A stretch of 64,000 nucleotides of DNA from Dehalococcoidia bacterium (GCA_050011565.1 JBEKIW010000004.1:60553-124552); one strand, 5' to 3'. Counted from the stretch's first letter, positions 6,757 through 57,472 are shown. Notes: a model not told the origin generated them from the sequence alone. Numbers and translations are program-made.

Positions 6757-6771
6757 ATTAGGAGGAATTGA

Positions 6772-7131: not shown

Positions 7132-7154
7132 AATCACCCTCACGTAGTGAGAAT

Positions 7155-8192
7155 ATGCTAAATCAAGTTGAAGAGCTTGCCTCTAAAGCTCTTGATGAGC
7201 TAGCTAAAGTCACCAATGTCAATGAGATTGAAGCGTGGCGAATCCGTTATTTAGGCAGAAAAAGTAATTTAATACATATTCTGCGTTCGTTGGCAACTGT
7301 GCCAATAAATGAAAGGCGTGAAGTCGGAGCCCGAGCCAACGAACTAAAGAAATCTCTGGAAACCGCTTTTGAAGAGAAGAAGGTTGATTTAGAAAGCGAT
7401 TCAGCCCTTCTCACCGGGCGTGAGACTTTAGATGTCACCTTACCCGGTCAGCAAATTCCCCTGGGCCGTCTCCATCCAACAACTCAAATACTTGAGGAGA
7501 TTTGTGACATTTTTAGCAGCATGGGTTTTCAAGTAGTGGAAGGGCCGGAGGTAGAATGGGACTATTATAATTTCGAAGCCCTCAACATGCCGGCAGACCA
7601 TCCGGCACGTGATATGTTTGCTACATTATGGGTGGACTTTGAGACTAAAACCGGCGACAGACCTATGCTCTTGAGGACTCACACTTCTCCAGTCCAGATA
7701 AGAGTAATGGAGAAAACACCTCCACCGATCAGAATAATAGCACCGGGGCGAGTTTATAGATACGAAGCCACAGATGCCACGCACGAGTGGATGTTTTATC
7801 AAGTTGAGGGGTTGGCAGTCGATAGAAACATAACCCTGGCCGACTTAAAAGGAACATTGTTTGAATTTGCTCGCCGCCTTTTTGGCGAGGACAGGAAATG
7901 TCGTTTTCGTTGTGATTACTTTCCTTTCGTAGAACCTGGCGTTGAGGTGGCTATTGATTGTCTGGTGTGTCATGGTGCTGGATGCAGGCTGTGCGACAAT
8001 AGCGGCTGGATTGAAATTCTGGGTGCGGGGATGGTGCATCCCGAAGTTCTTCGACGCCTTGGTATTGACCCTCAGATTTATTCAGGTTTCGCCTTCGGTA
8101 TGGGGGTGGAGCGTATTCCTATTCTTCGCTACGGCATAGATGACATTCGCCTTTTTTATGGTAACGACCTCAGGTTTCTGAAGCAGTTTTGA
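7155..8192 (+). CDS. pheS: phenylalanyl-tRNA synthetase alpha subunit
   Basis: 345 aa. Class II motifs ([29 protein letters not shown]). Conserved position after rplT. Confidence 0.9.
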
Positions 8193-8217
8193 GTCTATTT
8201 ATTGCCGAGACCTTAAT

Positions 8218-15761: not shown

Positions 15762-16828
15762 GGTAAAATACTCTCTCCCTGAATAATATGTGTAACATCA
15801 AAGTAGCTTACCACAATAATCAGAAGCATTAGCACCGCGAAGCCTATAAGGTGGACAAGGCCCTCTCTTTTTGGGGATATCCTTTTTCCTCGCCGGACCC
15901 ATTCTAAAGCCACAAAGATTAGTCTGCCCCCATCGAGACCCGGGAAGGGGAAGATGTTAATTATGGCCAGGTTTATACTGATTAGCGCGGCAAATTCCAG
16001 CAGGGGGCTTATGCCGGCTTTAGCAATCTGACCGGTGATTTCGGCAATACCTATCGGTCCGGTTACTTGAGGTGGTGTTCCTCCAATGAACCACCCTACC
16101 ACTTCATTACGGAATAAAACGAGTATTTCCCAGCAATGAACTATACTTGAAGGCACCGCTTTCCAAATAGGGTCCGATTGGCGGACTGTTGTACTGTCTA
16201 CACCGATGATATTGATGCCGGTTGCCCCTTGCCCCTCAGGCGGATTCCATCTTGGCTTCAAACTTAGTTCCTTAGGAGGGAGTTCGTCGCTTTGAAGCAA
16301 AATATTTACCTGTGAGCCTAGGTAAAGCTGGATAAAATAACCAACATCGCTACGATTTTTAATTGTGTGACCGTTTATTGCTAGGATTGTATCTCCCGGC
16401 TCAATTCCAGCCATCTGAGCTGGTGAACCTGGGGCAACTTCTTGTACCTGTACTTTCTCGAGAATCATATTGTGCGGGATCATAAAACTGATAGAAAACA
16501 GTAATATGGGTAGCAAAATATTCATCAACGAGCCGGCACTGAGAACCAGAATTCGTACGGGGATGCTCTTGCTGGCGAGGCTTCCCGGCAGTGTTGGGTC
16601 TTCTTCTCCGACCATCTTGGTAAAGCCACCCAGAGGTATTGCATTTATAGAATACGTTGTCTCCCCTCGCCTGAAGCTGATGATCCTGGGCGGAAAACCT
16701 ATGCCGAATTCCTCCACCTTTACTCGAGCAAGCTTGGCGGTGATGAAATGCCCAAATTCATGGGCGAAGACAAGTAATATTAGTATGCCTATAAAACTGA
16801 CAATTGTAAGTACTATTGTTTCAATCAT
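15758..16828 (-). CDS. rseP: RIP metalloprotease RseP (M50 family)
   Basis: HEFGHF zinc motif at the N-terminus, PDZ domain, multiple TM helices. Overlaps ispG by 4 nt. Confidence 0.8.
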   Translation of the reverse strand: MIETIVLTIVSFIGILILLVFAHEFGHFITAKLARVKVEEFGIGFPPRIISFRRGETTYSINAIPLGGFTKMVGEEDPTLPGSLASKSIPVRILVLSAGSLMNILLPILLFSISFMIPHNMILEKVQVQEVAPGSPAQMAGIEPGDTILAINGHTIKNRSDVGYFIQLYLGSQVNILLQSDELPPKELSLKPRWNPPEGQGATGINIIGVDSTTVRQSDPIWKAVPSSIVHCWEILVLFRNEVVGWFIGGTPPQVTGPIGIAEITGQIAKAGISPLLEFAALISINLAIINIFPFPGLDGGRLIFVALEWVRRGKRISPKREGLVHLIGFAVLMLLIIVVSYFDVTHIIQGESILP

Positions 16829-16832
16829 AAAT

Positions 16833-17960
16833 TTACCTTGCTGCTGACTTCAGCGCCGTGTCTCTTGCCCACTCATCAGCTATTAAAATTTCTTCCAGAG
16901 TAGGGCTATCTATGCTCTGGTGTAAGCTAATGGTCTTGTCTATGATTTCTGCGATTTGGGGGAAAGCGATGCGCTGTTCAAGAAAAAGTTGGATAGCAAT
17001 CTCATCGGCGGCACAAAGTACAGCAGGGTAGGTTCCTCCTTTTTTCCCGGCATCCAATGCTAGTTGTAGGCAGGGAAACATGGCACAGTTTATTGTCTCA
17101 AAGGTCAGCGAATTCAATCGTGCGAGGTTCATGCGAGGCAAATTATCGTTGGCTAGCCGCTCGGGATACGACAAAGCATATTGAATGGCGAAACGCATAT
17201 CGGGGACACTAAGTTGAGCCTTAAGTGAGCCGTCAATAAATTCTACGAGAGAATGAATTATGCTCTGTGGATGAATTACTATTTCGATTTTGTTAAGGGG
17301 TATAGAAAAAAGCCAGCTAGCTTCGATTGTTTCCAGTCCCTTATTCATCAGGGTAGCCGAATCAATAGTAACTTTTTTCCCCATTTTCCATACCGGATGT
17401 TCTAGAGCTTCATCAACTGTAACCTTAGATAATCTTAAAGGTGAATGATGATAGAAAGGCCCTCCCGAAGCGGTGAGGATAAGCTGAGCTACCCCACCTT
17501 TCTCTCCTTGCAGGCATTGGTGTATGGCGCTGTGTTCGCTATCAATAGGCAGGATTTGTGCCTGCCGGAGTTTAGCCTCCTTCATAATAATTTCGCCTGC
17601 CATGACCAGCACTTCTTTATTGGCCAGAGCTATTTTTTTTCCTGACCTTATGGCTGCTAATGTCGGGGTCAGTCCTATTTTACCTGACGTGGCTACGACT
17701 ACCATGTTGACTTCTGGATGAGTGGCAACCTCTTCCATCGAAGAGAATTTGGTGTTGCCCGGAAGATTGAATCTGTGGGGTGAGTATACTAGTTTAGGCT
17801 GAAATTGACTTATTTGATCGCTGAGTAGGCTGGCATTTTTCCCACCGGCTAAACCTATTATCCTGAATTTGTCAGGGAAATCTCTTACTATGTCCAGGAC
17901 TTGCTGACCTATAGAACCTGTTGAGCCTATAACGGCTAGTTTTTTAATAACTTTACTCAT
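16833..17960 (-). CDS. dxr: 1-deoxy-D-xylulose 5-phosphate reductoisomerase
   Basis: 375 aa. N-terminal NADPH motif (LAVIGSTGSIGQQ), DXR catalytic and C-terminal domains. Confidence 0.9.
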   Translation of the reverse strand: MSKVIKKLAVIGSTGSIGQQVLDIVRDFPDKFRIIGLAGGKNASLLSDQISQFQPKLVYSPHRFNLPGNTKFSSMEEVATHPEVNMVVVATSGKIGLTPTLAAIRSGKKIALANKEVLVMAGEIIMKEAKLRQAQILPIDSEHSAIHQCLQGEKGGVAQLILTASGGPFYHHSPLRLSKVTVDEALEHPVWKMGKKVTIDSATLMNKGLETIEASWLFSIPLNKIEIVIHPQSIIHSLVEFIDGSLKAQLSVPDMRFAIQYALSYPERLANDNLPRMNLARLNSLTFETINCAMFPCLQLALDAGKKGGTYPAVLCAADEIAIQLFLEQRIAFPQIAEIIDKTISLHQSIDSPTLEEILIADEWARDTALKSAAR

Positions 17961-29399: not shown

Positions 29400-31025
29400 C
29401 TATCTTCTGGCTTTATATCGCCGCCAGGTTATTGTCGCCAAGCCCACTATCCCAGCGATAAACACTAGTGGGATAACCAGAGACAAAATAAGGACTCGAC
29501 TTGACATGGGTATTACTTCAAATTCGTTAGCATCTGACCACAACCCTTCATTGCCGATGTCATCCACAGCCATTACTCGCCAGGTATAGCTGCCTATAGT
29601 TACGATGTCATCTCTGGATAAACTGTACTCTGAATCTACCAGCCCTTTCTTTAAGACAGTCGGTGATGAAAAGTCATTACCATTGGCAATCTCCAAGTTG
29701 TACGTTGTTTTACCCTGGACTTTAATATCCGACCAATCAAATGTAACATCAGGCGCCACAAGTCCTCGTTTGTCAGCGCTTTGAAACGAGATGATTCCCA
29801 TCAGTTGCTTGGCTGTCCCAAGAAATACATCACCAACTGAATCAAAAACCGCTAATTTAGCTCCCTGCGCGGGGGATACTAGCGATGGTGCAGTAGGTGT
29901 GACTTTGTCGATTATGAAAATAGTTTCTGCCGAACCGCCTGCTCCTCCTGTAGCTTTCACTTTGTTTTCTTTGATAGTACTTTGAGGGGCTTCAAAACTG
30001 GTACTAAAGCTACCTTTATCGTCGGCAATGGCATTTGTACTGAGGTTAGTTCCTTCAAAGCTCAAGCTAATAGCTTCATCCTTGTTGAAGCCTGTTCCGT
30101 TAACAATGACCTTTGTCCCCTTGTTTCCCGAAGGCGGCTCTAATTGGATATTTGGAACCACGTTAAAATCCATATCAGGGATGATTCCTTTAGGTGTGAA
30201 ATCGCTACCAAAGATGCCAAGCAGGTGAGGTCCTTTAGTGGTGGGTGGAATATTCAAAGTAGCATTCAAGACTCCATCTGTGCCCGCTATAAGATTGACC
30301 AGGAATATTTGATTATCCCATGTAAAGGTGATCCCGTCCTCACTGGTTCGGAAGCCATATCCTTCTACTGTAATCTCCGTTCCTACCGGACCGGAGTTCG
30401 GTTGTATCTTAACAAATGGTGCAACAATGAATTTGTGCTCGCCGATTTCAGAGGCATCAGTCGAACTGCTGAAAGCACTGATATAGTATTCACCCTTAGT
30501 CGGCTCGGGGGCGTCAAAATTGACGCTCCACATACCGAGATGGTTGGCAGTAGCAGAAAACGGGAGGGCGGTTTTATTCCACGTTACTTTAATATCTTTT
30601 TCGAAGCAGACGAAGCCGTTACCAGTAACCGTAAGCGATGTATATGGCCGGCCAATACGCGGAAATATTTCTATTCCGGGCAATACGGTGAATGTAGCTG
30701 ATGCGGTGCTGCCGGTCCAATTGCTGTCGTCTGTAATTCTAATGGTGTAGCTGCCTCGACAGACTGTTGGTACCTGCAAATCGAATGCTAACTCACCAGT
30801 GTCAGATATAGGTACCTTGCTCAATATAATTTGTTTATCCCAGTAGATGGTAGCCAATCGGCCGGAGAATCCATCACCGCTGATATGCACGGATGTATTG
30901 ACGGTGCCTGACGTAGGCGCTATCGTAATATTAGAAGCATGAGTGGGTACAGGGGAGGCCAGAAATATGAGCGGGAGAACAATAATTATAGCTAAGAACG
31001 TAAGTAAAACTTTAGAATGTGCCAA
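29400..31025 (-). CDS. cell-surface protein with tandem Ig-like repeats and a C-terminal TM anchor (paralog of 10731..12482)
   Basis: 541 aa. Signal peptide, repeated GxGF...T(F/W)D...G domains, C-terminal module YTWRVMAVDDIGNEGLW matching YYWRVKAIDGASNDSGW of the paralog, terminal TM helix and RRYKARR tail. Confidence 0.6.
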   Translation of the reverse strand: MAHSKVLLTFLAIIIVLPLIFLASPVPTHASNITIAPTSGTVNTSVHISGDGFSGRLATIYWDKQIILSKVPISDTGELAFDLQVPTVCRGSYTIRITDDSNWTGSTASATFTVLPGIEIFPRIGRPYTSLTVTGNGFVCFEKDIKVTWNKTALPFSATANHLGMWSVNFDAPEPTKGEYYISAFSSSTDASEIGEHKFIVAPFVKIQPNSGPVGTEITVEGYGFRTSEDGITFTWDNQIFLVNLIAGTDGVLNATLNIPPTTKGPHLLGIFGSDFTPKGIIPDMDFNVVPNIQLEPPSGNKGTKVIVNGTGFNKDEAISLSFEGTNLSTNAIADDKGSFSTSFEAPQSTIKENKVKATGGAGGSAETIFIIDKVTPTAPSLVSPAQGAKLAVFDSVGDVFLGTAKQLMGIISFQSADKRGLVAPDVTFDWSDIKVQGKTTYNLEIANGNDFSSPTVLKKGLVDSEYSLSRDDIVTIGSYTWRVMAVDDIGNEGLWSDANEFEVIPMSSRVLILSLVIPLVFIAGIVGLATITWRRYKARR

Positions 31026-42506: not shown

Positions 42507-44216
42507 CTACTCCTCTCTCAGCTCACGACGAGATACTTTGCCGACATCTGTTTTAGGCACCTCGCCTCTGAACTCGACGATTGTGGGACACTTATAATCA
42601 GCTAGCCTCTCCTGGCAATATTTCATGATATCCAGCTCTGATAGCTTCCCTCTGGCTTCTGTCTCGAGGACAACTACTGCTTTTACTTTCTCTCCAACCT
42701 CGGGGTCGGGAACTCCGATTACACCCGTCTCCTTGATTTGAGGATGAGCCGCCAGGACTTCTTCTACCTCCCTGGCATATACAATCTTGCCCTTGTGCTT
42801 AATCATATCACGTTTTCTGTCGTAGAAAAAGAAATAGCCGTCTTGATCCATTCTGCACAAGTCGCCGGTACGAAGCCAGATTTCACCGTCTATATTGACA
42901 AATGTTTCACTGGTTGCCTCCGGGTTTTTCCAGTATCCTTTGGCTACTTGTGGACCCTTTATTATAAGCTCGCCTATCTCGCCAACAGAAAGAAAATTGT
43001 TGCTATCGGGGTCGACTATGGCAGCCACGGTATTAGGTAGAGGTACACCGAAAGAGCCGACTTTTGTTTTGCCGAATGGGTTGACAATTCCCACAGAAGT
43101 TGTTTCAGTCATCCCCCAGCCCTCGTGGATTTTGGAGCCCGTCCTTTTCTCCCAGCCTTTAGCCGTGTCCTCAAGTAGGATGTCGGCGCCGGAGATAAGA
43201 ACTTTGACGCGCTTCCAATTGACTCTGTCGGTGCGGTGGTAATCTCGAAGATATTCATATAAGGCCGCCACGCTGTAGAAAATAGTTGCATGGTAAGTTT
43301 CCATGGCGTTGAGTAAGTCGTCAAGGTCGATGGTGGTGAATATCACCAGGGTGTATCCCTGCGCCAGACCACCCGCCACCAACACCGCCTGGCCATAGAT
43401 ATGATAGAAGGGCAAATAAGCTAAAATGGTTTCCTTGCCTTCTTGCGTAACATCGCCCCAGAAATTTGCGGCTATATGTTCGGATACGTTAATGTTTTCG
43501 TGGGTTATCATAACACCTTTGGGTAGTCCCGTTGTCCCTCCGGTGTAGGGAAGAGTTACCAGGTCCTCCTTATTGTTGAATTCGATTTTCGGTGGATTGG
43601 GTGGATATTTCTTAATCAAGTCTTTGAATAGATAGAATCCCTCTCTATGGTAGAGCTCGGCAGGCGGTGCTGCCATCTTCTGGTAGACGGCACGGAGTAC
43701 GCTGCTGCCCATGAACCTTTTCAGCCACGGTATATAATCGGCGATATTTACCAGGATGACCTTATCCAGCTTGACTTCTGCCCGTTCGACGTTATCATAG
43801 AGATTATCCTGGCAGATAATTATGGTGGCGCCGCTGTCTTCAATTTGATGTTTGATTTCGGGGCTGACATAGAAAGGACTGATGGCAGTTAAAATGGCTC
43901 CAGCCTTTAAAGCTCCGAAAAAGGCTATGATGAACTGGGGTGAGTTCAGAAGTAGTAAAGCGACTCTATCCCCCTTTTTAACTCCTAAGTCCTGGAGAGC
44001 TGTGGCGAATCTATCGACATGGTCTCTTAGCTCGCGGTAGCTCATCTTCCTGCCATAGAATATTACGGCAGTTCTATCCTTCCATTTGTCTGTGGCTTCG
44101 TTAAAGATGTCAACTGCGGACTTATCCGCCATTTTTATGTCCGCCGGCACCTCCGGGAGATAGAACTTCAGCCACGGTCTGGATTCGTATATTGCCTTGT
44201 TGGTATCGGCCGCCAT
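42507..44216 (-). CDS. AMP-dependent acyl-CoA synthetase/ligase
   Basis: AMP-binding motifs (YTGGTTGLPKGV, GWGMTE, TGD). The start is taken at the internal ATG (44214-44216), which has a perfect RBS AAAGGAGGAGGTGA. The ORF-track 5' extension MLYFAPNKGGGDI appears to be leader sequence. Confidence 0.85.
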   Translation of the reverse strand: MAADTNKAIYESRPWLKFYLPEVPADIKMADKSAVDIFNEATDKWKDRTAVIFYGRKMSYRELRDHVDRFATALQDLGVKKGDRVALLLLNSPQFIIAFFGALKAGAILTAISPFYVSPEIKHQIEDSGATIIICQDNLYDNVERAEVKLDKVILVNIADYIPWLKRFMGSSVLRAVYQKMAAPPAELYHREGFYLFKDLIKKYPPNPPKIEFNNKEDLVTLPYTGGTTGLPKGVMITHENINVSEHIAANFWGDVTQEGKETILAYLPFYHIYGQAVLVAGGLAQGYTLVIFTTIDLDDLLNAMETYHATIFYSVAALYEYLRDYHRTDRVNWKRVKVLISGADILLEDTAKGWEKRTGSKIHEGWGMTETTSVGIVNPFGKTKVGSFGVPLPNTVAAIVDPDSNNFLSVGEIGELIIKGPQVAKGYWKNPEATSETFVNIDGEIWLRTGDLCRMDQDGYFFFYDRKRDMIKHKGKIVYAREVEEVLAAHPQIKETGVIGVPDPEVGEKVKAVVVLETEARGKLSELDIMKYCQERLADYKCPTIVEFRGEVPKTDVGKVSRRELREE

Positions 44217-44246
44217 TATGTCACCTCCTCCTTTATTTGGAGCAAA

Positions 44247-44256
44247 GTATAGCACA
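44247..44256 (-). promoter_or_regulatory. extended -10 promoter element TGcTATACT for the downstream CoA ligase
   Basis: Minus strand reads TGTGCTATACT, about 30 nt upstream of the ligase ATG. A duplicate sits at 46366-46376. Confidence 0.35.
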
Positions 44257-44500: not shown

Positions 44501-46333
44501 TTACAGCTCGTCCTCTCTCAATTCCCGCCTAGATACTTTGCCGACATCTGTCTTTGGCACTTCACCCCTGAACTCTACGATTCTGGGACATTTATAGTGC
44601 GCCATATGTTCCGCGCAATATTTCATGATTTCTTCTTCGGAGACTTTGCCTCTGGCGTCCGTCTCGAGGACGACGATGGCTTTGACTTTCTCTCCGACGT
44701 TTTTGTCGGGAACCCCGATTACACCCGCCTCTTTGACCAGTGGATGCGCTTTCAGTACCTCCTCCACCTCCCTGGCGAATACCGCCAGGCCCTTATATTT
44801 AATCATGTCACGTTTTCTATCGTAGAAAAAGAAATAGCCTTCTTTGTCCATTCTGGCCAGGTCGCCGGTTCGAAGCCATGTTTCGCCGCCGATTTTGACG
44901 AACATTTTCTTCGTCTCTTCCGGATTATGCCAGTATCCTGGGGATATTTGTGGACCCCTGACGGCAAGCTCGCCTATCTCGCCAACAGGCAGAAATTTGG
45001 TGCTTTCAGGACTGAGTATTCCAGCTACTGTGTTACACATGGGGACGCCGAAAGAACCGACCTTCGGCCTGCCGTATGGACTACCCATTCCAATAGAGCT
45101 AGTCTCAGTCATACCCCAGCCCTCATGTATTTTAGTATTTGTCCGTTTCTCCCAACCTATCGCCGTATCTTCAAGAAGGGCATCGGCGCCGGAGACGAGA
45201 ACTTTGAGGCGCTTCCAGTTAATTCTGTCCGTACGTTGATAATCTCTGAGGTACTCATACAAAGACGGGACGCTGAAGAAAATAGTTGCCTTGTAGCTTT
45301 CGATGGCATTTAAGATGTCGTCGAGGTCGGGGGTGGTGAATATCACCAGGGTGTAGCCCTGAGCCAGACCACCCAACATAATCACTGCCTGACCGTAGAT
45401 ATGGTAAAAGGGCAAATATGCCAGTATGGTCTCTTTGCCTTCCTGGACAATATTTCCCCAGAACTCTGAGCCTATGTACCTGGCTGCAGTGATATTATAG
45501 TGGGTTATCATAGCTCCTTTGGGAAGTCCTGTTGTGCCGCCGGTATAGGGCAGGGTTACCAGGTCCTCATGAATATTGAACTTGATTTTTGGCGGCTTGG
45601 GCGGATATTTCTTAATCAAGTCCTGTAATTGATAAATTCCTTCTCTTTCATATATCTCAGAAGGTGGTGCTGCCATCTTCTGGTATACAGCCCTGAGTAT
45701 GCTGCTGCCCAGGAACTTTTTTAGCCCGGGTAAATATTCTGCAATACTGGTCAGGATAACCTTATCCAGTTTGACTCCTGACCGTTCCACATTTTCATAA
45801 AGTATATCCTGGCAGACGATTATCCGGGCGCCGCTGTCTTCAATTTGATGTTTGATTTCGGGACTAACATAAACAGGACTGATGGCAGTCAGTATAGCTC
45901 CAGCCTTCAGGGCGCCGAAATAGGCTATGATGAATTGAGGTGAGTTCAGGAGCAGTAAAGCAACCCTATCACCTTTTTTGACTCCCAGGTCCTGCAAGGC
46001 TGTGGCGAATCTATCGACGTGGTCTCTTAATTCGCGGTAGCTTATTTTTCTACCGTAGAATATTACGGCGGTCCTATCCTTCCATTTAGTTGTAGCTTCA
46101 TCGAAGGTTTCGACTGCGGATTTTTCCGGTATTTTGACATCCGCGGGCACCTCTTTGAGGTAAAACTTCAGCCATGGTCTTTTTTCATATATTGCCTTGT
46201 TTGGGTCAGCCTTTGGAGCAGCTTTCTTTACTTGAGCTTTCTTTAGTTGAGCTTTCTTTAGTTGAGCTTTCTTTAGTTGAGCTTTCTTTGGGTGAGCCTT
46301 CTTTGGGTGGGACTTCTTTGGGTGAGCCTTCAT
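44501..46333 (-). CDS. AMP-dependent acyl-CoA synthetase/ligase with a lysine-rich N-terminal repeat tail
   Basis: Paralog of 42507..44216, about 75% identical by eye. The start is taken at ATG 46331-46333, preceded by TTAGGAGGAGACGACACA. The N-terminus is MKAHPKKSHPKKAHPKKAQLKKAQLKKAQLKKAQVKKAAPK. Confidence 0.8.
   Translation of the reverse strand: MKAHPKKSHPKKAHPKKAQLKKAQLKKAQLKKAQVKKAAPKADPNKAIYEKRPWLKFYLKEVPADVKIPEKSAVETFDEATTKWKDRTAVIFYGRKISYRELRDHVDRFATALQDLGVKKGDRVALLLLNSPQFIIAYFGALKAGAILTAISPVYVSPEIKHQIEDSGARIIVCQDILYENVERSGVKLDKVILTSIAEYLPGLKKFLGSSILRAVYQKMAAPPSEIYEREGIYQLQDLIKKYPPKPPKIKFNIHEDLVTLPYTGGTTGLPKGAMITHYNITAARYIGSEFWGNIVQEGKETILAYLPFYHIYGQAVIMLGGLAQGYTLVIFTTPDLDDILNAIESYKATIFFSVPSLYEYLRDYQRTDRINWKRLKVLVSGADALLEDTAIGWEKRTNTKIHEGWGMTETSSIGMGSPYGRPKVGSFGVPMCNTVAGILSPESTKFLPVGEIGELAVRGPQISPGYWHNPEETKKMFVKIGGETWLRTGDLARMDKEGYFFFYDRKRDMIKYKGLAVFAREVEEVLKAHPLVKEAGVIGVPDKNVGEKVKAIVVLETDARGKVSEEEIMKYCAEHMAHYKCPRIVEFRGEVPKTDVGKVSRRELREDEL
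46221..46333. repeat. 15-nt tandem DNA repeat (about 7 copies) encoding the K-K-A-(Q/H)-(L/P) tail
   Basis: GCTTTCTTTAGTTGA x3, then GCTTTCTTTGGGTGA / GCCTTCTTTGGGTGG / GACTTCTTTGGGTGA. Confidence 0.7.
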
Positions 46334-46365
46334 TGTGTCGTCTCCTCCTAATTTGCTAAGCGTCA

Positions 46366-46376
46366 AGTATAACACA
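46366..46376 (-). promoter_or_regulatory. extended -10 promoter element TGtTATACT for CoA ligase paralog 2
   Basis: Minus strand reads TGTGTTATACTTGAC... followed by the RBS and ATG, matching the architecture of the leader at 44217-44260. Confidence 0.35.
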
Positions 46377-48264: not shown

Positions 48265-49107
48265 AAATGGGTTAGTTCATTTGTAGAACTCTATTATTTC
48301 TCCTCTCCTAGGTTAATCTTTAGAGAAATTACTGATGAGCCACCCCATCGTCTGTTGGCGACTTACGTAACTGAAACATTTGTACACAACCCAAGTGTTC
48401 TAAACGCCTGTTTTATAGAAACAGATTATTCTCACCTTTACTTCCTTGCATTGATAAACTCGTCACTTTTGTCTGAATATTTTTATCGAACAAGTCCAAA
48501 GTCGGGCAAGGGACTATTTCCGAAAGTATTAGTCGAAGACATTAGGAGATTTCCCATACGCCGCGTCTCCTTTACCACACTTCGTGAACGGCGTGAGGCA
48601 TTGGTCGGTCAAGGCCGCCAGCTTTACGAGGTAGATCCGTCAAGCGTAGTCGCGTTCGTGGAAGAGCGTCTTTCCGCTCAACCGGAAGAATCAGATGTGG
48701 TGCATGACCTGCTGGCTTTCCTGGCGGAGGAGATGATACGGCTCAACAAAGAGAAGCAGTCCAGGATTAAAGTGTTTTTATCCTGGCTTGAGAAGGAGAT
48801 ACTGAAAGGCTCCGTTGAAGACCAGAAGAACAAGACAAAGATAAAGGACTTCTATAACAATACCTTTGAGGATTTGCTGGATGTGCTTAAGAAAAATAAG
48901 ATTATCCCGGACCCGTGCCCGTCCAACATACGGGACATTATAGCCAGTGAATTTTCGGCGGCTGTGAATGCCCTTACTCCACTAAAGACTCGAATCAAAG
49001 TAACCGATGACCTCATTGACCAGATAGTCTATAGACTCTACAGCCTTACCGATGATGAAATATCCATCGTGGAAGGCAGTATTACCACGACAACTCGAAC
49101 AAAATGA
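48265..49107 (+). pseudogene. fragment of a type IIG restriction-modification / BREX PglX-like protein (C-terminal TaqI_C-like specificity region only)
   Basis: The translation (..PRLIFREITDEPPHRLLATYVTETFVHNPSVLNACF...FLALINSSLLSEYFYR...FPKVLVEDIRRFPI...) resembles the C-terminal specificity region of gamma-class N6-adenine methyltransferase / type IIG enzymes. The reading frame is closed by TAA at 48262, there is no ATG, and the N-terminal methyltransferase domain is absent. Upstream is 590 nt of AT-rich non-coding DNA. Confidence 0.5.
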
Positions 49108-50468: not shown

Positions 50469-51719
50469 TCAGGCCTGGCTGTCCTTTTTCAGGATATAGT
50501 CCCGGACAATTTTAAGAGATGCTTCAACCAGCTCCGGTTCAATAGATTCAGGGACATCATCCGGTGTGTGATACACGAGGTCCTCACCGAATTTTCCGAT
50601 ATCAAAGCTAATACCCGCCATATTGATGGCTTCAACGCCGAGCTTGCCGAATTCAGCGGCATCCGTGCTGCCGGCACCGAAGGGCATAGAGGCGATTCGG
50701 GCGGGATAACCCAGCGATTTAGCAGTATCCACACAATCCTGCGCCATGGCACGGGACAGCCTCACGGTTGAATTCAGGTCTTTGTCCAGAAAAGTGAGGT
50801 CTTTGAGCTTGTAAAGCGTGTCGATATTAAAGACATAGGTCTTGGTGTTCAGCAATTCTTGGCCGTGTTTATTACAGAAGGCACGCGCGCCGCGGAGCCC
50901 GGCTTCCTCGGCATCGAAAGAGGCTACTATTAAGCGGGTGTGACGCAGAGGATTTTTGCCCGCTTTTTTAGCCTGATGGAATAGCCGGGCCGTCTCGCCG
51001 GCAACGGCTACGGCAATCATGTCATCGCCGGCAGCGGGAGATACCTCTCCCGTGGTGAAGAAGGCCAGCGGCAGCTGGAAAATGCCGCCGACCATCAGGG
51101 CCACAGGTACCCAGAGTAGGATCCCGTCGGGAACAGGGACTTGAAACAAGGCCAGCACGATCCAAATCAGCGAGACGAGGAAGCCGAGCAGCAAAAACAG
51201 TATGCCGGCGTTGATTAGCCTGGCATAGTATTTCGGGGCATAAGCCAGTAGCTGAAAGACATAGGCGGCGTCATGATGGGCGCTGACCACGACCTGCTGC
51301 TTTACCTCGCCTTCAGGTTCGATAGAGCCGTAGACGTTGTAGCCGGTGGCTTTGGGGAAATAGGGGTCGAGCAATTCCCAGTAGCGGACAAACTGGGCAT
51401 AAAACATGAAGATTGCCAGGCCGTAGACGACAAGCGCCGTCAGCGGGAGCCCGAAATATAATAGAACAGCGCCGGCAAAATAAAGGACGACGAGGGCGGG
51501 GATATATTTCAGGAAGCTCTTAGGGTGGACCGTGAAATCTTCCACGTGCACCGAGCCCGGGTCACAGTGCTTAATGAATTCCTGTTTTATGCGGTCGGCG
51601 GCATTTTTACAGGCTTCCGTTCCAGCCAGGCGGTTGGGGTAGTTCTGAACGACTTCATCGGTGAAGTTGAAGACTCGACGGACGTGGGTTTTGGTTATGT
51701 TCAGGCTGCGGGTTTTCAT
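50469..51719 (-). CDS. M28-family zinc peptidase with membrane-spanning insert
   Basis: 416 aa. SAHHDAAY and DAEEAGLRGA metal-binding motifs. A central block of TM helices is present. Confidence 0.65.
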   Translation of the reverse strand: MKTRSLNITKTHVRRVFNFTDEVVQNYPNRLAGTEACKNAADRIKQEFIKHCDPGSVHVEDFTVHPKSFLKYIPALVVLYFAGAVLLYFGLPLTALVVYGLAIFMFYAQFVRYWELLDPYFPKATGYNVYGSIEPEGEVKQQVVVSAHHDAAYVFQLLAYAPKYYARLINAGILFLLLGFLVSLIWIVLALFQVPVPDGILLWVPVALMVGGIFQLPLAFFTTGEVSPAAGDDMIAVAVAGETARLFHQAKKAGKNPLRHTRLIVASFDAEEAGLRGARAFCNKHGQELLNTKTYVFNIDTLYKLKDLTFLDKDLNSTVRLSRAMAQDCVDTAKSLGYPARIASMPFGAGSTDAAEFGKLGVEAINMAGISFDIGKFGEDLVYHTPDDVPESIEPELVEASLKIVRDYILKKDSQA

Positions 51720-51767
51720 GGCGTTGTCTGCTGCCTATGTTAAGGCGCAGGTGGATGGTTGTCAACT

Positions 51768-51875
51768 GGAAATCCCCCTTTATCCCCCTTTTTCAAAGGG
51801 GGAAATAGGCTTCTCCCTTTCCTAAAGGGAGATTGAGAGGGATTTTACCTTCTTACAAATCCCCCTTTATCCGCT
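51768..51875. repeat. structured intergenic repeat element, copy A (one full unit of about 77 nt plus a partial unit)
   Basis: AATCCCCCTTTATCCCCCTTTTTCAAAGGGGGAAATAGGCTTCTCCCTTTCCTAAAGGGAGATTGAGAGGGATTTTA, then CAAATCCCCCTTTATCC. Nested palindromes: CCCCCTTT/AAAGGGGG, TCTCCCTTT/AAAGGGAGA, outer AATCCC/GGGATT. Confidence 0.65.
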
Positions 51876-52024
51876 CGAGCGCATTTCCGTTATTTTTGAC
51901 ACTTTACTGAATAGGTTGTACCATTCTCTGCCCAATGATATGTATTTCCAACGACCGAGCGAGTCAAGATTCGGATGGCTTTCAGCTATTCGACCTTTCG
52001 CGAAGTCTATTTTAAGGAGGACTA

Positions 52025-52801
52025 ATGAAGCGTTATAAATACCTGTTATTGTGTCTAACTATTGTCGTGTCTATTGTCTCACTGGGTGGTTGTCTTGTAT
52101 CATCCTCTACTCAGTCTGAAATCCAACTACCAACCCCAAGCAGTACACCGGCGATGCCGCAGATTGGGGCACTGGTTACCTTGCCCAGCTTTGCCGATTT
52201 GACGGATACCGTTAAGCGTTCGGTGGTAGCCATTGACACCGAGACCGTTGTTACCAGAAGATATATTCAGCGCACTATCCCGGGTGCCGGCTCGGGATGG
52301 ATAATCGATGAAAGCGGCATCATCGTAACCAATAATCATGTAATCGAAGGTGCACAAACTATTACGGTGGAACTGGAAAACGGTAAGACGTACACTCCAG
52401 TAAGCATCAAAACTGACCCCGATTCCGATATAGCGATACTTAAGATTAATGCCGGGAAGCTACCGGCTCTCAAAGTTGGTGATGCCTCGAAGCTGAGGGT
52501 TGGGGATTGGGTGGTAGCGGTAGGAAACGCGCTGGGAATGGGCATAAGTGTTAAAGACGGTATCGTCAGTCGTCTCGGCGTGAGCATTCAAATATCTCCA
52601 AGTGAAACGTATTCCAATCTAATTGAAACCAATGCCGCAATTAATCCCGGCAACAGCGGCGGTCCGCTGGTCAACCTGGCGGGAGAGGTAATCGGCATAA
52701 CCAGCCTGAAACTCGCTATTGGCGGCGTCGAAGGGATGGGATATGCCATAAATATAGAAGATGCGCTGCCGGTGATTCAGAGGCTATTCAAATCAATTTA
52801 G
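52025..52801 (+). CDS. secreted trypsin-like serine protease (S1C/HtrA-like, no PDZ domain), lipoprotein
   Basis: 258 aa. Lipobox LGGC. His (TNNHV), Asp (DIAILK) and Ser (GNSGGPLVN) catalytic triad motifs. Confidence 0.8.
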   Translation: MKRYKYLLLCLTIVVSIVSLGGCLVSSSTQSEIQLPTPSSTPAMPQIGALVTLPSFADLTDTVKRSVVAIDTETVVTRRYIQRTIPGAGSGWIIDESGIIVTNNHVIEGAQTITVELENGKTYTPVSIKTDPDSDIAILKINAGKLPALKVGDASKLRVGDWVVAVGNALGMGISVKDGIVSRLGVSIQISPSETYSNLIETNAAINPGNSGGPLVNLAGEVIGITSLKLAIGGVEGMGYAINIEDALPVIQRLFKSI

Positions 52802-52886
52802 TTTACCCGCTTAAATAGAAGCGATGATTTATGATTCTTGCTAATTGTGGTAAATTTTAGGCTGAATGAAATCAAAGGAGGGCTAT

Positions 52887-53084
52887 ATGGCGGCAAAAAG
52901 TGAATATCAACGGCAGCTAACTATTCTTTTAATATCTTTTCTGGCAGGCTATTTCGGTCTGGACCGTTTCTACCGGGGAGAAATAGCACTGGGCGTTATT
53001 AAGATGATAACATGTGGCGGCCTTGGAGTGTGGTATTTAGTGGATGTAGCTATTGCTGCCTATCAATTTGGAAAGCTTGACTAA
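52887..53084 (+). CDS. TM2-domain small membrane protein
   Basis: FGLDRFYRGEIALGVIKMITCGGLGVWYLVD matches the TM2 domain signature. The start is likely the ATG at 52887 after AAGGAGGG (the ORF track begins at 52866). Confidence 0.6.
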   Translation: MAAKSEYQRQLTILLISFLAGYFGLDRFYRGEIALGVIKMITCGGLGVWYLVDVAIAAYQFGKLD

Positions 53085-53110
53085 TCCCGAAGCTAACCGT
53101 TAAATTAAGG

Positions 53111-53138
53111 CCTTTTCACCTGAGGGCAGGTGACAGCT
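53111..53138 (+). terminator. hairpin after the TM2 gene
   Basis: TCACCTG-AGGG-CAGGTGA. 7-bp stem with no clear U-tract, so it is weak. Confidence 0.25.
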
Positions 53139-53143
53139 AGAGC

Positions 53144-53289
53144 AAAAATCCCCCTTAATCCCCCTTTTTCTAAGGGGGAGACGAAGAATAAAAGTTAGAA
53201 GTAGGGATTTAAGATCCCCCTTAACCCCCCTTTTCCAAAGGGGGAAATAGACCTCTCCCTTTCGTAAAGGGAGATTGAGAGGGATTTTA
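53144..53289. repeat. structured intergenic repeat element, copy B (a diverged partial unit plus one full unit)
   Basis: ...AAAATCCCCCTTAATCCCCCTTTTTCTAAGGGGGAG...TAGGGATTTAAG ATCCCCCTTAACCCCCCTTTTCCAAAGGGGGAAATAGACCTCTCCCTTTCGTAAAGGGAGATTGAGAGGGATTTTA. The full unit is about 90% identical to copy A. Confidence 0.65.
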
Positions 53290-53290
53290 G

Positions 53291-54580
53291 CTACATTGCC
53301 GGGTTCGTGACGTGTCCGAGAAATAAGATCGCCCCTGTTTGAATGTCCCGAATTAGAAAGATAAAGGGGCGGTCAATGGTCACATCAACAACGTTCAATT
53401 GTAACGATGTGGTTGTCATAACAACCGCCGTAGCGGCGGCTGCCTCCGTGCCGACTTCGTCGACAGAAACAAATGCCTTATGAATCACGTCCGATATGTA
53501 TAGATCGCGCTTGCCGTCCATGCCTGAAAAATCAGCGTTCTCGGTAAAAGCCACCGGCATACCCATAGCACTGAGGGCTTTCTTCAGGCTGAAGTCGGAG
53601 GAGAATTCGTATTTGGGCATAGTCAACACGACTCGCTTGGAAGCTAAGCTGGCAATAATTCCGTCGACCTTACCGGCATCCAGAGACCTTTCAAACGTAG
53701 TGAACTGGCCGGGCTGAGGCAGCAGAATCACCATGGAAAGCTCGCTTCCGTCATAGGGCAATTCCACCGCCTGATAATCATCACCTTCTGCATAGGCAAA
53801 CGATTTTGTCTGTTTCATCATTGGCACGGTGACTTCACTGCCGGAGAGCAAGTGAAAGGTGCCATCGGCGGTGGCATCTTTCTCGAAGGGGAACTGCCAG
53901 GCGGCGTTGAAGTAGATGGCGTTGGTCAGGACCAGGCGGGTCATGGCGTCGATAGCGCCCGGTGGAATCAGGTCTTTAATCCTGCCTTCCGTCTGGTCGC
54001 TTACCCAGTCGTTAATAGTGACGCGCGATGGTTCAGGTGCGTTTATGAAATCGAGCGTTCTGATGCCGGCGCCGTAGTTCTCAGCCAGGATATCGAGGAA
54101 CTCCTGGAGAAAGGCGTAGCCCTTTTGTCCCCAGATGGCATTTACGATATTGAGTCTGAAGCCTTTCTCATCCTTGCCTTTGGCGCCCTGGCCACGCTGG
54201 CTTAGTTCTATATCCAGGCTATTGAGCGCCGGGTGAAGCAGTTCCTGCGGCAGAGTATAGTGGAGCGTGTTTGCCATTTGCTGCGCCGTATCGCCGCGGG
54301 CGCCGGCATAGGTCATAGCCAGTGCCAGCGAAATGCTGTAGGGTGAAAAGAAAACGTTTTCATCTCCTTTGATTTGTTGATAGGCGTCAAAGGCAAATGC
54401 GTTGTTGCCGTTTACCAGCGCGGCCAGGTCAGCCTGACTGGCGACTGGAGAAGTTATTCTTTGCTTATCCGATTTTACTGTCTGGCTTACCGGCTGCGCA
54501 CCAGGCGGCACGATACAGGCTGAACTGCCAATCAACATCATAGCAACTAAAATAACCGAAACCAGCAAATTGTTTTTCAT
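53291..54580 (-). CDS. serpin (serine protease inhibitor), lipoprotein
   Basis: 429 aa. Lipobox GSSAC. Serpin core motifs (FNAAWQFPF; hinge EVGTEAAAATAVVM typical of inhibitory serpins; C-terminal PFIFLIRD). Confidence 0.8.
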   Translation of the reverse strand: MKNNLLVSVILVAMMLIGSSACIVPPGAQPVSQTVKSDKQRITSPVASQADLAALVNGNNAFAFDAYQQIKGDENVFFSPYSISLALAMTYAGARGDTAQQMANTLHYTLPQELLHPALNSLDIELSQRGQGAKGKDEKGFRLNIVNAIWGQKGYAFLQEFLDILAENYGAGIRTLDFINAPEPSRVTINDWVSDQTEGRIKDLIPPGAIDAMTRLVLTNAIYFNAAWQFPFEKDATADGTFHLLSGSEVTVPMMKQTKSFAYAEGDDYQAVELPYDGSELSMVILLPQPGQFTTFERSLDAGKVDGIIASLASKRVVLTMPKYEFSSDFSLKKALSAMGMPVAFTENADFSGMDGKRDLYISDVIHKAFVSVDEVGTEAAAATAVVMTTTSLQLNVVDVTIDRPFIFLIRDIQTGAILFLGHVTNPAM

Positions 54581-54668
54581 GTTTTATTCCCTCCTAGTCT
54601 ACTCTATCACCATGAATAACGAAGCGGCCTGGCAAAGGTTTAGCAAGCCACAGTGCGCAGGCGGTTTC

Positions 54669-55112
54669 TCAAGGTACACATATGATTTCCGGCTCGTGTT
54701 CCGGCTGCGGACGGGCACCTCCTTCAGCGAAGATGTGTACCGCCTGATAAACATAGCACGCCCTGGACTTACACATACCATCCTCAAGGCAGATTTCCCT
54801 CAGAATTTCATCAGCCCGCTGCCGGTGAACCCTATAATCGAGGACGCCTTCCCGCATCAACTGATACAGGGCGTCGTGAACGAGAGAGCCACGCATGAAG
54901 TCTCTGGTATCGATGGTCGGTCCGCTGGGCCCGTCCCAGGCATAATACTTGTTGATAGATAAAATCCCCTGCGGGGACAAGGACAGGAATTTAGCCAGTT
55001 TGCGCCTGATAGCCTTGAGAGGTTTGAGGTCGATTTTAATCGTGTAGTCTTTCATCACCTGGTACTTATAACTCGTCAGGTTCCTATAACAAACCTTTGA
55101 CATGTTCACCAC
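54669..55112 (-). CDS. DUF1353-like hypothetical protein
   Basis: 147 aa. YAWDGPSGP...SLVHDALYQ resembles the DUF1353 family, which is often phage-associated. Weak call. Confidence 0.4.
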   Translation of the reverse strand: MVNMSKVCYRNLTSYKYQVMKDYTIKIDLKPLKAIRRKLAKFLSLSPQGILSINKYYAWDGPSGPTIDTRDFMRGSLVHDALYQLMREGVLDYRVHRQRADEILREICLEDGMCKSRACYVYQAVHIFAEGGARPQPEHEPEIICVP

Positions 55113-55170
55113 CTCCTATATTCCTTCAGTAACAGTGCCTTGTACGGCTCGCCTAAGAGGATTCATAAAT

Positions 55171-56118
55171 CTAGGTAACAGACTCCAGCACCTCTTGTAT
55201 GGCTCTCTCTGTCAATTGCAGGAATGTATCATACGCTCCTAAATCCAATTTCCCTTCCGCTATAATTTTACCGATAGGTCTATCCATAATGTTGGCTATA
55301 ATATACTGACACAATGGGTCCATTAATTTCAGTGCCCAAAGTTCCCTCTCTGTAGGCGGCTCAATTATCTTCAGTTCCTCGGCTACTTTCAAATCCCATG
55401 GAATACTATTTTTCACATCCTCAACGTCTGCCTCATCCTGCCAGGGGAATACCTCAGCTAAATACAGCACATGGGTATGAGGGTCGAATCTGAAAACTCC
55501 TCTGTCAGTGACCACGGCTGAAGGTCCTCCTCCAACTAAATTCGCCTTCTTCCTGGCATCGGGACTGCCATCGAGGAAACCTGCCTCGGTCATGTAGTCG
55601 AGTTTTTCCACCCATTGCCTTGGGTTAAACTCCGCGGTATACACTATTCTCCCCGCCGATGATGCTATGTCGGCTCCGCCGCCGCTACCATTCATCTTCA
55701 TTTGTCGTCCAATTATATAACTAACATTAACATTTCCAAACATATCCATTTGGGCAAACCCCAGATAAGACATATCAATAAAGCCCGATTGTTGGTCTAT
55801 GAACGTCTCAGGAAGGCCCTGATGACACATAGCCATGGCGCCTGCCGAGTTATCAGCCGGGCTGATCAGGACGGAAACGCTGGCAAATCCCACATATCCT
55901 GCCTCGGCCACCAGTACTACATTTGGCGTATGTACCAGCTTGGCTATGGCACCGGCGAGGTCCGAAATGCCAATGCCAACAAACACAGTCTCTCTATCTT
56001 CCACTTCCCTTGACCCGGCGCAGCATACCAGCACCGGCGGCTCATATCTCTTCTTCATTGCATCGAGCTGCCGCCGTGAATATTTCTCTCGCGTGGTATA
56101 TAAATGTCCCATTTTCAT
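55171..56118 (-). CDS. CoA-transferase family I, beta subunit (GctB / 3-oxoacid CoA-transferase B like)
   Basis: 315 aa. VFVGIGISDLAGAIAKL...VAEAGYVG region typical of beta subunits. Confidence 0.7.
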   Translation of the reverse strand: MKMGHLYTTREKYSRRQLDAMKKRYEPPVLVCCAGSREVEDRETVFVGIGISDLAGAIAKLVHTPNVVLVAEAGYVGFASVSVLISPADNSAGAMAMCHQGLPETFIDQQSGFIDMSYLGFAQMDMFGNVNVSYIIGRQMKMNGSGGGADIASSAGRIVYTAEFNPRQWVEKLDYMTEAGFLDGSPDARKKANLVGGGPSAVVTDRGVFRFDPHTHVLYLAEVFPWQDEADVEDVKNSIPWDLKVAEELKIIEPPTERELWALKLMDPLCQYIIANIMDRPIGKIIAEGKLDLGAYDTFLQLTERAIQEVLESVT

Positions 56119-56146
56119 ACCTCTCTTATATTTTTATTAATATCCC

Positions 56147-57199
56147 TCACCCGGGTATATTGTTTAGCTTATGTTCTGCTTTAGCCAGTCTATCCAGTTT
56201 TTCCCATCCTATCTTGTCGCAATATCCGAAGTGAGTTTTGGGGCCATAAACCCATTCATCGATCCACTTCAAAGCTCCTTCGCGACTCTGCCTCTGTAGT
56301 AAGAGTGACACGAAGCTTAGACCGTCCATTGTATAGCATCCAAAGCAACCTGCAGGATGGCAATTAAAGGGAAGGTGGACAACGGCATCGGTGCAATAGG
56401 CTGGTATCACCGTCAGCCCCGGGTTCTCATATATCTTTTCGGTGGGAACAATTTCCTCAGCAAGCAGCACTACATGTTTAGCTGCCCTGGCTTTCCAGTA
56501 ATCCGTTCCTTTAAAGCCCCATATCTGACCATTTCCTCTTCGGTCTGCCTTCTGAACTGAGATGAAGGCGACATCCGGTTTGTAAGCCGGGATAAGCAGC
56601 AGCGGCTTGTTCTCATACGGGTCATTTATGACCTTGATATCTTTATTGTATTTGGGGATATCGGTGCCAAGTGAGGAGCGGCAGGGCATGAAGGGGACAT
56701 TGATTGCCCCGGCCATGAGTCTCAGCGAAATTTCAAAATTCGTCCAGTCTACGATCTTGAGCCAGGGTAAATCAGACTTAACCTTATCTTTCGGCGTGGC
56801 TAAAACACCACCCGCCTCAACCGGGCGCGGTACACCCTCCTTTATACCGCGCTCCAGCGCCGGCGTGCCGGAAATACCACCCACCTGGCGCGTCATGTTA
56901 TACGCTATATCTATCCTATCGAGCACCCCCAACTCTACCAGCAGGTCTATACCCTCAAAATTTCCGCTCTCATCTATAATAGATAAATTTTTCTTTCCTT
57001 GACGTGCTATCTCCCTCATAATGGCTTCAGGCTGCCTGCACATGACAAAACCACCTATACAAAATGAATCTCCATCATGCAGAAACGTTTCCACTGCTTC
57101 CTTCTCCGTCATCACCTTACGCAATCTCTTTTTGTAATGTGCGTCTTTGGCTCTCTCCTCATAATTTATTGTTTCAAGCCCTTTTATTGCCATTTTCAC
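56147..57199 (-). CDS. CoA-transferase family I, alpha subunit (GctA-like)
   Basis: 350 aa. GDSFCIGGF and PYENKPLLLIPA regions typical of alpha subunits. Adjacent to the beta subunit. Confidence 0.7.
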   Translation of the reverse strand: MKMAIKGLETINYEERAKDAHYKKRLRKVMTEKEAVETFLHDGDSFCIGGFVMCRQPEAIMREIARQGKKNLSIIDESGNFEGIDLLVELGVLDRIDIAYNMTRQVGGISGTPALERGIKEGVPRPVEAGGVLATPKDKVKSDLPWLKIVDWTNFEISLRLMAGAINVPFMPCRSSLGTDIPKYNKDIKVINDPYENKPLLLIPAYKPDVAFISVQKADRRGNGQIWGFKGTDYWKARAAKHVVLLAEEIVPTEKIYENPGLTVIPAYCTDAVVHLPFNCHPAGCFGCYTMDGLSFVSLLLQRQSREGALKWIDEWVYGPKTHFGYCDKIGWEKLDRLAKAEHKLNNIPG

Positions 57200-57398
57200 A
57201 ATGCCCCCTTTTATAAATTTTCTAGAAACTAGATTATCCAGTAGCTTTAAGGTTTTTTACTTCGATGGAGAACACCTGGTTTCTGGAATACCATGAGTTA
57301 GATAATCCGGTATCGACTTCAGGTGGGTTATACTATATCTCGCCAGCTTGTGATTACTGAGCTACTCAGGTTGTCACTACTAGGTCTTCTACGAATGG

Positions 57399-57472
57399 TC
57401 GGGGTGGCCGGATTCGAACCGGCGACCACCTGAACCCCATTCAGGTGCGCTACCAGGCTGCGCTACACCCCG
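57399..57472 (-). tRNA. tRNA-Pro (anticodon GGG)
   Basis: Reverse complement CGGGGTGTAGCGCAGCCTGGTAGCGCACCTGAATGGGGTTCAGGTGGTCGCCGGTTCGAATCCGGCCACCCCGA. Anticodon loop ATGGGGT. Confidence 0.85.

Follow-up and report, generated by a model that had tools for sequence, protein, structure and literature searches.

Chloropin from Chlorobium limicola (8GXV) and miropin (5NCS) are the closest characterized bacterial relatives of a serpin that is encoded on the minus strand of a 64,000-nucleotide (nt) stretch of Dehalococcoidia bacterium DNA (GCA_050011565.1 JBEKIW010000004.1:60553-124552), which in its full length is called the window here. Both are inhibitors and, like the window serpin, full-length proteins with a canonical inhibitory hinge; both are exported, as the window serpin is predicted to be. 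The window serpin differs from them in its lipobox cysteine, its conserved linker motif, and its membership of a Chloroflexota-wide family with a conserved loop. In addition, the predicted P1 residue of the window serpin is threonine, whereas chloropin is reported to be most efficient on thrombin-like proteases (PMC10090351). The physiological targets of chloropin and miropin are unknown or debated, and those of most prokaryotic serpins have been described as elusive (PMC10090351).

Among solved structures, the best match to the window serpin is human SERPINB1 (leukocyte elastase inhibitor, 4GA7), which covers serpin residues 54-427 and has an identical GTEAAAATA hinge. However, SERPINB1 is an intracellular clade-B protein that has no signal peptide and carries Cys or Phe at P1, whereas the window serpin is a predicted lipoprotein with Thr at P1. 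The serpin gene lies tail to tail with that of a protease sharing its domain, His-Asp-Ser triad, and GNSGGP motif with HtrA, DegP, DegQ, DegS, and HhoA (MEROPS S1C). While canonical HtrA proteins possess one or two PDZ domains that control activation and oligomerization and are soluble in the periplasm, the window protease has no such domain and is predicted to be lipid anchored. Secreted proteases are encoded side by side with their inhibitors in the staphopain-staphostatin operons and in the KLIKK protease-potempin operons of Tannerella forsythia, where the two genes are co-transcribed and co-conserved. In contrast, the two window genes are convergent, and each of them is found alone in close relatives.

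We conclude that the window serpin is probably an ordinary Chloroflexota lipoprotein serpin whose targets form a general class of proteases, with the tail-to-tail PDZ-less HtrA neighbor being neither required by it nor dependent on it. The original prediction annotated these genes correctly and its speculation was reasonable, and open reading frame (ORF) calling in the window recovered all four of its predicted ORFs exactly where it had placed them; the locus is not an unusual system.

The serpin, its reactive loop, and its lipid anchor

The serpin and its sequence features are as follows.

53291-54580, minus strand: serpin, 429 amino acids (aa), PF00079, predicted lipoprotein with an inhibitory-type hinge
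53396-53458, minus strand: reactive-center loop from P17 to P4', aa 375-395, EVGTEAAAATAVVMTTT up to P1 and SLQL from P1'
54515-54580, minus strand: signal peptide and lipobox, aa 1-22, MKNNLLVSVILVAMMLIGSSA-C22, by direct reading

The protein matches the Pfam family PF00079 over profile positions 2-370 of 370 (E = 7.5e-119), and 172 serpins of the PDB align with it end to end (E <1e-30). The matches to solved structures include SERPINB1 (4ga7, 2.2e-76), chloropin (8gxv, 1.4e-74), and miropin (5ncs, 4.3e-55). The hinge E375-V-G-T-E-A-A-A-A-T384, followed by A-V-V, is the inhibitory-serpin consensus. The full-length family match and the GTEAAAATAVV hinge thus confirm what had been claimed for this gene. 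Homologues number more than 8000, all with E <=1e-20, and the loop and lipobox counts given below cover the best 120 of them, which are 56-97% identical to the window serpin. The inhibitory hinge pattern E-x-G-T-E-A-A-A-[AS]-T is matched in every one of these 120 sequences, and neither the window serpin nor any homologue shown has a proline or a charged residue at P12-P9. As judged from these features, the window serpin bears every sequence hallmark of the inhibitory class.

Thr391, the seventeenth residue of a count that begins at P17, is the predicted P1, with Ser392 at P1'. In a pairwise alignment, Thr391 falls in register with Cys344 of SERPINB1, and the length from P17 to P1 is equal in the two proteins. 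The homologues have Ala at P7 and Val at P6 in 118 of 120 cases each and Met at P4 in 94, followed by Thr at P1 in 98, Ala or Ser at P1' in 107, and Pro at P3' in 117. The family loop consensus is A-V-[IV]-M-x-[LA]-T/[AS]-x-P, the stroke separating P1 from P1', and the sole unusual loop residue of the window serpin is Gln at P3'. The reactive loop is conserved throughout this serpin family.

The N terminus carries the lipobox LIGSSA-C22. Cys22 is invariant in an alignment of 22 homologues and at least 90% conserved in one of 57, while the flanking residues vary; a lipobox-type tetrapeptide is present in 102 of the 120 homologues. The serpin is accordingly annotated here as a predicted exported lipoprotein. 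The Pfam serpin domain starts at residue 58, and the linker that joins it to the lipid anchor contains a conserved motif at residues 37-45, S37-D-K-x-R-x-T-S-P45 (54446-54472, minus strand), whose S37, R41, and P45 are invariant in the 57 homologues. No Lgt or LspA gene occurs in the window; an LGT gene is present on the contig of a relative (L007). A terminator scan found a terminator-like hairpin after the serpin at 53254-53274 on the minus strand.

The neighboring protease and its association with the serpin

The other three genes of the locus are the following.

52025-52801, plus strand: protease, 258 aa, PDZ-less S1C (HtrA/DegP-type), predicted lipoprotein
52866-53084, plus strand: TM2 protein, 72 aa, PF05154
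54669-55112, minus strand: DUF1353-like gene, 147 aa if started at GTG, 144 aa if started at the ATG at 55103

The neighbor had been called an HtrA-like protease, a description that is right for the catalytic domain and fails for the PDZ domain. The protein matches Trypsin_2 in Pfam (E = 1.1e-31), and its solved relatives, which align over the protease domain only, are DegP-like/MucD (1.2e-42), HhoA, DegP, DegQ, HTRA1, and DegS (E from 1e-42 to 1e-29). Aligned to DegP-like proteases, it has the triad H105 (in NNHV), D135 (in DSDIA), and S211 (in GNSGGP), which is the chymotrypsin-fold His-Asp-Ser arrangement of HtrA/DegP (MEROPS S1C). However, HtrA/DegP proteins also have at least one C-terminal PDZ domain, and Pfam gave no PDZ match in the protease. 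The NCBIfam profile TIGR02037 aligns only at positions 56-229 of 434 and scores below its cut-off because the PDZ part is missing.

The protease stops where the PDZ domain starts in its Chloroflexota relatives of 365-385 aa, and it aligns with residues 7-271 of one 376-aa S1C protease (P0200) at 56% identity. Dozens of orthologues at ~60-97% identity are likewise PDZ-less and ~255-275 aa long, with the PDZ domain missing from every orthologue of at least 64% identity, while the relatives at 46-63% identity include both PDZ-containing proteins (L097, L101) and a PDZ-less protein of 274 aa (L099). The protease belongs to a stable PDZ-less subfamily. Loss of the PDZ domain by pseudogenization was considered and ruled out, as the TM2 gene starts only 64 nt past the stop codon and the orthologues keep the same length. 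The lipobox reads SLGG-C23, and its Cys is kept in every orthologue read, with PIGC, MGGC, SVGC, SIGC, LVGC, and ISSC as the orthologous lipoboxes; the protease is thus also a predicted exported lipoprotein. The lipobox Cys being conserved in the homologues of both the serpin and the protease, the earlier claim that both are lipoproteins is upheld at the level of prediction, and a shared compartment is expected.

The genes form two units that face each other, with the protease and TM2 genes on the plus strand and the DUF1353-like and serpin genes on the minus strand, so the convergent, tail-to-tail order was described correctly. A Shine-Dalgarno sequence (AAGGAGG) lies 5 nt upstream of the protease gene. 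The protease stop and the TM2 start are 64 nt apart on the same strand, the DUF1353-like gene shares the strand of the serpin gene and precedes it by 88 nt, and the 206 nt between the TM2 and serpin stop codons are filled by hairpins. Upstream, the M28 peptidase gene and the protease gene are divergent, with a palindromic repeat element between them.

The close relatives, named here by contig, differ in which of these genes they hold. The window, L003/L011, L016/L091, and L174 share an order that runs from DUF362 and M28 through further genes to the protease and TM2, with the serpin gene convergent to these last two.

L001/L002: serpin 89% identical; M28, TM2, serpin, and DUF1353 present; protease absent
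L003/L011: serpin 81% identical; arrangement as in the window
L174: serpin 81% identical; arrangement as in the window
L016/L091: serpin 69% identical; arrangement as in the window
L005/L012: serpin 77% identical; only TM2 and serpin, other neighbors differ; protease absent

On the serpin side, 80 loci from species-representative genomes were surveyed, each with flanks of up to 8 kb (tblastn, E <0.05). The protease family was found within 8 kb of the serpin in three of them, being adjacent in L011 and L016; the third, L013, has a PDZ-containing relative of the protease (52% identical) 2.7 kb from the serpin. Whatever its type, no neighbor is shared by more than 10 of these 80 loci. A recurrent protease partner was also sought by clustering the ORFs within 4 kb of the serpin in the 80 loci, and none emerged, the top clusters being an ECF (extracytoplasmic function) sigma factor and Beta_propel.

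On the protease side, the PDZ-less orthologues that are at least 83% identical adjoin a serpin (window, L174, L003, and L016). The relative L171 has the protease (79%) with TM2 at the same chromosomal site, between DUF362 on one side and the PpiC-rotamase, homoserine dehydrogenase, and PALP genes on the other, and has no serpin there. A relative with the serpin but not the protease (L001) and one with the protease but not the serpin (L171) thus occupy the same site. Gene content varies at this locus, which is a hotspot. The orthologues in L173 (75%) and L176 (66%) have no serpin within 5 kb, and the contig of L172 (75%) carries a serpin fragment 4.7 kb from the orthologue, at its end and in a different context. 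Similarly, the relatives at 46-63% identity (L097, L099, and L101) have no serpin neighbor, and three contigs carrying orthologues at 77-79% (L092-L094) are too short to display neighbors. Conserved co-occurrence across relatives is thus lacking, as is co-transcription, the genes being convergent. Moreover, serpin loops are near-identical with the protease next door (P0016, AATSAPMPEE) and without it (P0022, AATSAPMPEK).

Origin of the locus and proposed role of the serpin

Two palindromic elements flank the protease and TM2 genes.

51770-51875: palindromic element, full copy at 51772-51850 and partial copy at ~51857
53146-53292: palindromic element, partial copy at 53146-53185 and full copy at 53212-53292

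The 79-nt repeats at 51772-51850 and 53214-53292 are 91% identical, and apart from the partial copies no other repeats lie near the locus. Only the protease and TM2 genes fall between them. Because the second copy abuts the serpin stop codon, the serpin and the DUF1353-like gene lie outside the repeats, contrary to the claim that the serpin sits inside a repeat-bounded segment. The repeats fold into long, imperfect hairpins of -38 to -42 kcal/mol with z from -3.1 to -4.2 (upstream element, -38 kcal/mol and z -3.1; downstream element, z -3.8 to -4.2), and may act as bidirectional terminators. Each member of the family is ~75-80 nt long, with two inner GC-rich hairpins within an outer stem, and no Rfam family matched. 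By blastn, the family is dispersed in the intergenic DNA of L001, L003, and L016, with copies at several sites each in L003 and L016. L001, although it has no protease gene, has copies at six or more sites (~4209-4260, 9288-9340, 9843-9895, 11185-11493, and 16797-16833 among them), including one after the serpin stop codon and one between TM2 and M28. The repeats are a dispersed family of this Dehalococcoidia lineage, similar to repetitive extragenic palindromic (REP) or miniature inverted-repeat transposable elements (MITE), and are not island boundaries.

Bacterial serpins had further been described as patchily distributed and often horizontally acquired. However, relatives of the window serpin occur in at least 554 GTDB species genomes, almost all of them Chloroflexota, and in the window the gene stands in a syntenic core context and has an ordinary composition. 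Named homologues come from Dehalococcoidia, Chloroflexota, or Anaerolineae metagenome-assembled genomes (MAGs), and among the matches listed, the nearest species-representative genome is a Dehalococcoidia MAG with a serpin of 81% identity. Relative to the other genes of the window, the serpin has z +1.4 for GC, +1.8 for GC at third codon positions (GC3), and -0.24 for codon-usage distance, and the protease has z +0.2 for GC and -0.53 for codon-usage distance, so the comparison of composition proposed earlier leaves both genes unremarkable; the GC content of the neighboring M28 and DUF362 genes exceeds that of the serpin. Identities to L003 are 81% for the serpin, 88% for the protease, 87% for M28, 93% for DUF362, and 93-95% for the CoA-transferases, and the serpin therefore diverges roughly in step with its syntenic neighbors. 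Given its normal composition and syntenic position, there is no sign of recent horizontal transfer of the serpin. A recent serpin phylogeny found no evidence of inter-kingdom transfer (PMC10090351).

Two further observations concern the serpin family. Contigs labeled as a Methanosarcinales MAG (L022, 4.8 kb) and a Bathyarchaeia MAG (L074, 5.3 kb) carry serpins 66-67% identical to that of the window, which reflects either mis-binning or transfer to archaea. The most recurrent serpin neighborhood, present in 9-10 of the 80 loci, has the serpin directly downstream, on the same strand, of an ECF-type sigma factor (Sigma70_r2, r4_2) and a 700-aa Beta_propel protein (PF09826), as in L045 at 5176-9296 (gap of ~57 nt), L090 at ~5021-9218, and about eight more loci among L011-L090; this arrangement hints at control by an envelope-stress-type sigma factor.

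In the proposed mechanism, the serpin would be exported and lipid anchored on the outer face of the cytoplasmic membrane, where it would serve as a suicide-substrate inhibitor. A protease would attack the exposed loop in the Thr391-Ser392 region, and the cleaved loop would insert into beta-sheet A and trap the acyl-enzyme. The targets would be serine proteases that take a small or beta-branched P1 residue, in keeping with Thr at P1 and with the Ala, Ser, or Ile of variant loops, the candidates being HtrA-type envelope proteases in general and elastase- or subtilisin-like environmental proteases. Because the loop consensus is conserved family-wide, the target is probably a class common to the Dehalococcoidia and Anaerolineae or to their habitat. 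The neighboring PDZ-less protease, expected in the same compartment, may be among these targets; on the genomic evidence, the relationship is not obligatory. The P1 preference of Escherichia coli DegP is for Val, Ala, Thr, or Ile (PMC3195437), and the predicted P1 residue falls in this set in 108 of the 120 homologues. Human HTRA1 cuts alpha-1-antitrypsin at the canonical P1-P1' bond with some complex formation, and the authors left unsettled whether the serpin acts there as an inhibitor or as a substrate (PMC4203740).

The original prediction saw in the two genes a protease/inhibitor pair on the cell surface. Were the serpin the cognate regulator of the adjacent PDZ-less protease, it would replace PDZ control and limit the proteolysis of surface proteins. 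Adjacency in four lineages speaks for such a pair, as do a 75% orthologue outside the syntenic block that has a serpin at 4.7 kb and the prediction that both proteins are lipoproteins; in addition, the predicted P1 Thr suits the DegP-type preference, and HTRA1 does attack the alpha-1-antitrypsin loop with some complex formed. However, the convergent genes cannot share a single transcript, and alpha-1-antitrypsin was largely a substrate in that study (PMC4203740). The four adjacent cases are close relatives that share the whole block, with DUF362 88-94% identical, and their conserved gene order is what common descent alone predicts. L001 and L005 have the serpin but lack the protease, L171 has the protease but no serpin at this very site, 77 of the 80 species-level serpin loci lack the protease, and a neighboring protease makes no difference to the reactive loop. 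Taken together, a dedicated pair is unlikely, and no evidence was found that the two proteins control large repeat surface proteins, as had been proposed. Much less likely again is a non-inhibitory serpin that keeps the fold and acts as a chaperone, carrier, or binding protein. Although the strongly conserved extra N-terminal motif S37-P45 outside the Pfam domain hints at a further interaction, non-inhibitory serpins typically lose the small uncharged hinge residues, whereas here the P17-P8 hinge is present in all 120 homologues, P12-P9 are free of proline and charge in the sequences shown, and the closest characterized bacterial relatives, chloropin and miropin, are inhibitors. We give hardly any weight to the idea that the segment is a horizontally acquired, mobile, or recently transferred island bounded by direct repeats. 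The 91% identical repeats do flank the protease and TM2 genes, gene content at the locus differs among relatives, a gene of a phage family (DUF1353) stands next to the serpin, and a tRNA-Pro gene is 2.3 kb away. Yet the repeats are palindromic hairpins found at many intergenic sites of relatives, protease-less loci included, and they leave the serpin outside. No integrase, transposase, or other mobility gene was seen at 49-58 kb. The locus displays none of the marks of a genomic island, be it element-specific terminal repeats, mobility genes, or atypical composition. In GC, GC3, and codon usage, both serpin and protease lie within the range of the window, and the serpin is in a syntenic position, with a divergence that parallels that of its neighbors.

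The interpretation of the window serpin as an ordinary family member with a dispensable neighbor has to be set against several points that weigh on the other side. Serpin and protease are predicted to reside on the same membrane face, and for a protease that has lost its regulatory PDZ domain, an external regulator comes to mind. Among the eight informative PDZ-less orthologue loci, a serpin is adjacent in four, and L172 has its fragment at 4.7 kb; this protease-side association exceeds what a random gene would show. The P1 position was set by counting alone. AlphaFold2 models of the serpin reached a mean predicted local distance difference test score (pLDDT) of only 40.9 with a 22-sequence alignment and 46.1 with a 57-sequence alignment, values that are low because the homologues in these alignments, all at least 57% identical, are too alike; the fold assignment therefore rests on the matches to solved serpins. 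Moreover, a literature search on Dehalococcoidia and Chloroflexi serpins returned nothing functional, only a passing mention in a figure legend.

A bolder proposal is that the serpin of this small clade became the external regulator of a PDZ-less HtrA, or that Chloroflexota P1-Thr lipoprotein serpins control their own HtrA-type envelope proteases. We hold it to be rather improbable; if true, it would be the first endogenous bacterial serpin/HtrA regulatory pair and would supply a physiological target for prokaryotic serpins. A serpin consistently beside a protease would give a testable candidate target, and here the juxtaposition is real, confined to one lineage, and dispensable. The value of the locus thus lies in a biochemical hypothesis, the serpin against its PDZ-less HtrA neighbor and against PDZ-containing paralogues, and in a family of putatively lipid-anchored serpins with a conserved P1-Thr loop that is widespread in the Dehalococcoidia and Anaerolineae.

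Neighboring genes and chromosomal surroundings

The TM2 protein matches PF05154 with 54.3 bits against a cut-off of 27.9 (E = 1.5e-14). A TM2 gene is present in every lineage with the syntenic block, including the protease-less L001 and L005 and the serpin-less L171. It is the most constant member of the block (window, L001, L005, L016, L171, and L174) and lies upstream of the protease in L171. The gene just upstream of the PDZ-less protease in L172 and L173 encodes an unrelated protein of 73 aa for which two transmembrane segments are predicted.

The DUF1353-like protein scores 21.2 bits with PF07087, under the cut-off of 22.5, and matches the phage family phrog_1158 with E = 4.5e-27; a WDGPSGP...HDALY motif is readable. 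Although phrog_1158 is annotated as "tail assembly chaperone", no other phage genes were seen near the gene. The GTG at 55112 is a less likely start than the ATG at 55103, which a GGAGG precedes by 8 nt, and the protein has no signal peptide. L001 has an orthologue at 79% identity, whereas L005, L016, and L174 have none; the L003 orthologue (2871-3310) is split over two reading frames by a frameshift or a sequencing error.

On the chromosome of this uncultured Dehalococcoidia bacterium, a DUF362/ferredoxin gene and a PpiC-type rotamase gene enclose the locus, and the gene content between them varies. Compared with the close relatives L001, L003, L171, and L174, this stretch (50469-57472) is a hotspot in which M28, SDR, CDGSH, protease, TM2, serpin, DUF1353, CoA-transferase, Exo_endo_phos, amidohydrolase, Metallophos, and DUF5679 genes are present in some and absent from others. 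Elsewhere, the window holds core-chromosome genes for Thr-, Phe-, and Pro-tRNA synthetases, a branched-chain amino-acid ABC transporter, acyl-CoA synthetases, thiolase, and homoserine dehydrogenase. A promoter scan gave a plausible promoter, TTGACA-17-TACCAT, 5' of the protease gene, the number of promoter-like sites being no higher than the shuffled expectation. An Rfam scan of 51-58 kb had tRNA-Pro as its sole match.

The repeat surface proteins that the original prediction had in mind are probably two IPT/TIG-domain proteins, one of 583 aa (10731-12482, plus strand) and one of 541 aa (29400-31025, minus strand), which are encoded 20-40 kb from the serpin; no link to the serpin was seen. At 48355-49107 on the plus strand, a 250-aa ORF matches only the C-terminal TaqI_C specificity domain and resembles a remnant of a type IIG/MmeI-like restriction-modification enzyme. 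The full-length enzyme (917-1059 aa) is found at the same site in L001, L171, and L174. Finally, a 15-nt tandem repeat at 46196-46330, detected in seven overlapping registers, encodes KKAHP/KKAQL pentapeptide repeats that lie at the N terminus of an AMP-binding acyl-CoA synthetase (44501-46375, minus strand). The next gene (42507-44255) is a paralogue of it, and the 5' ends of the two genes share ~75% nucleotide identity over 300 nt.

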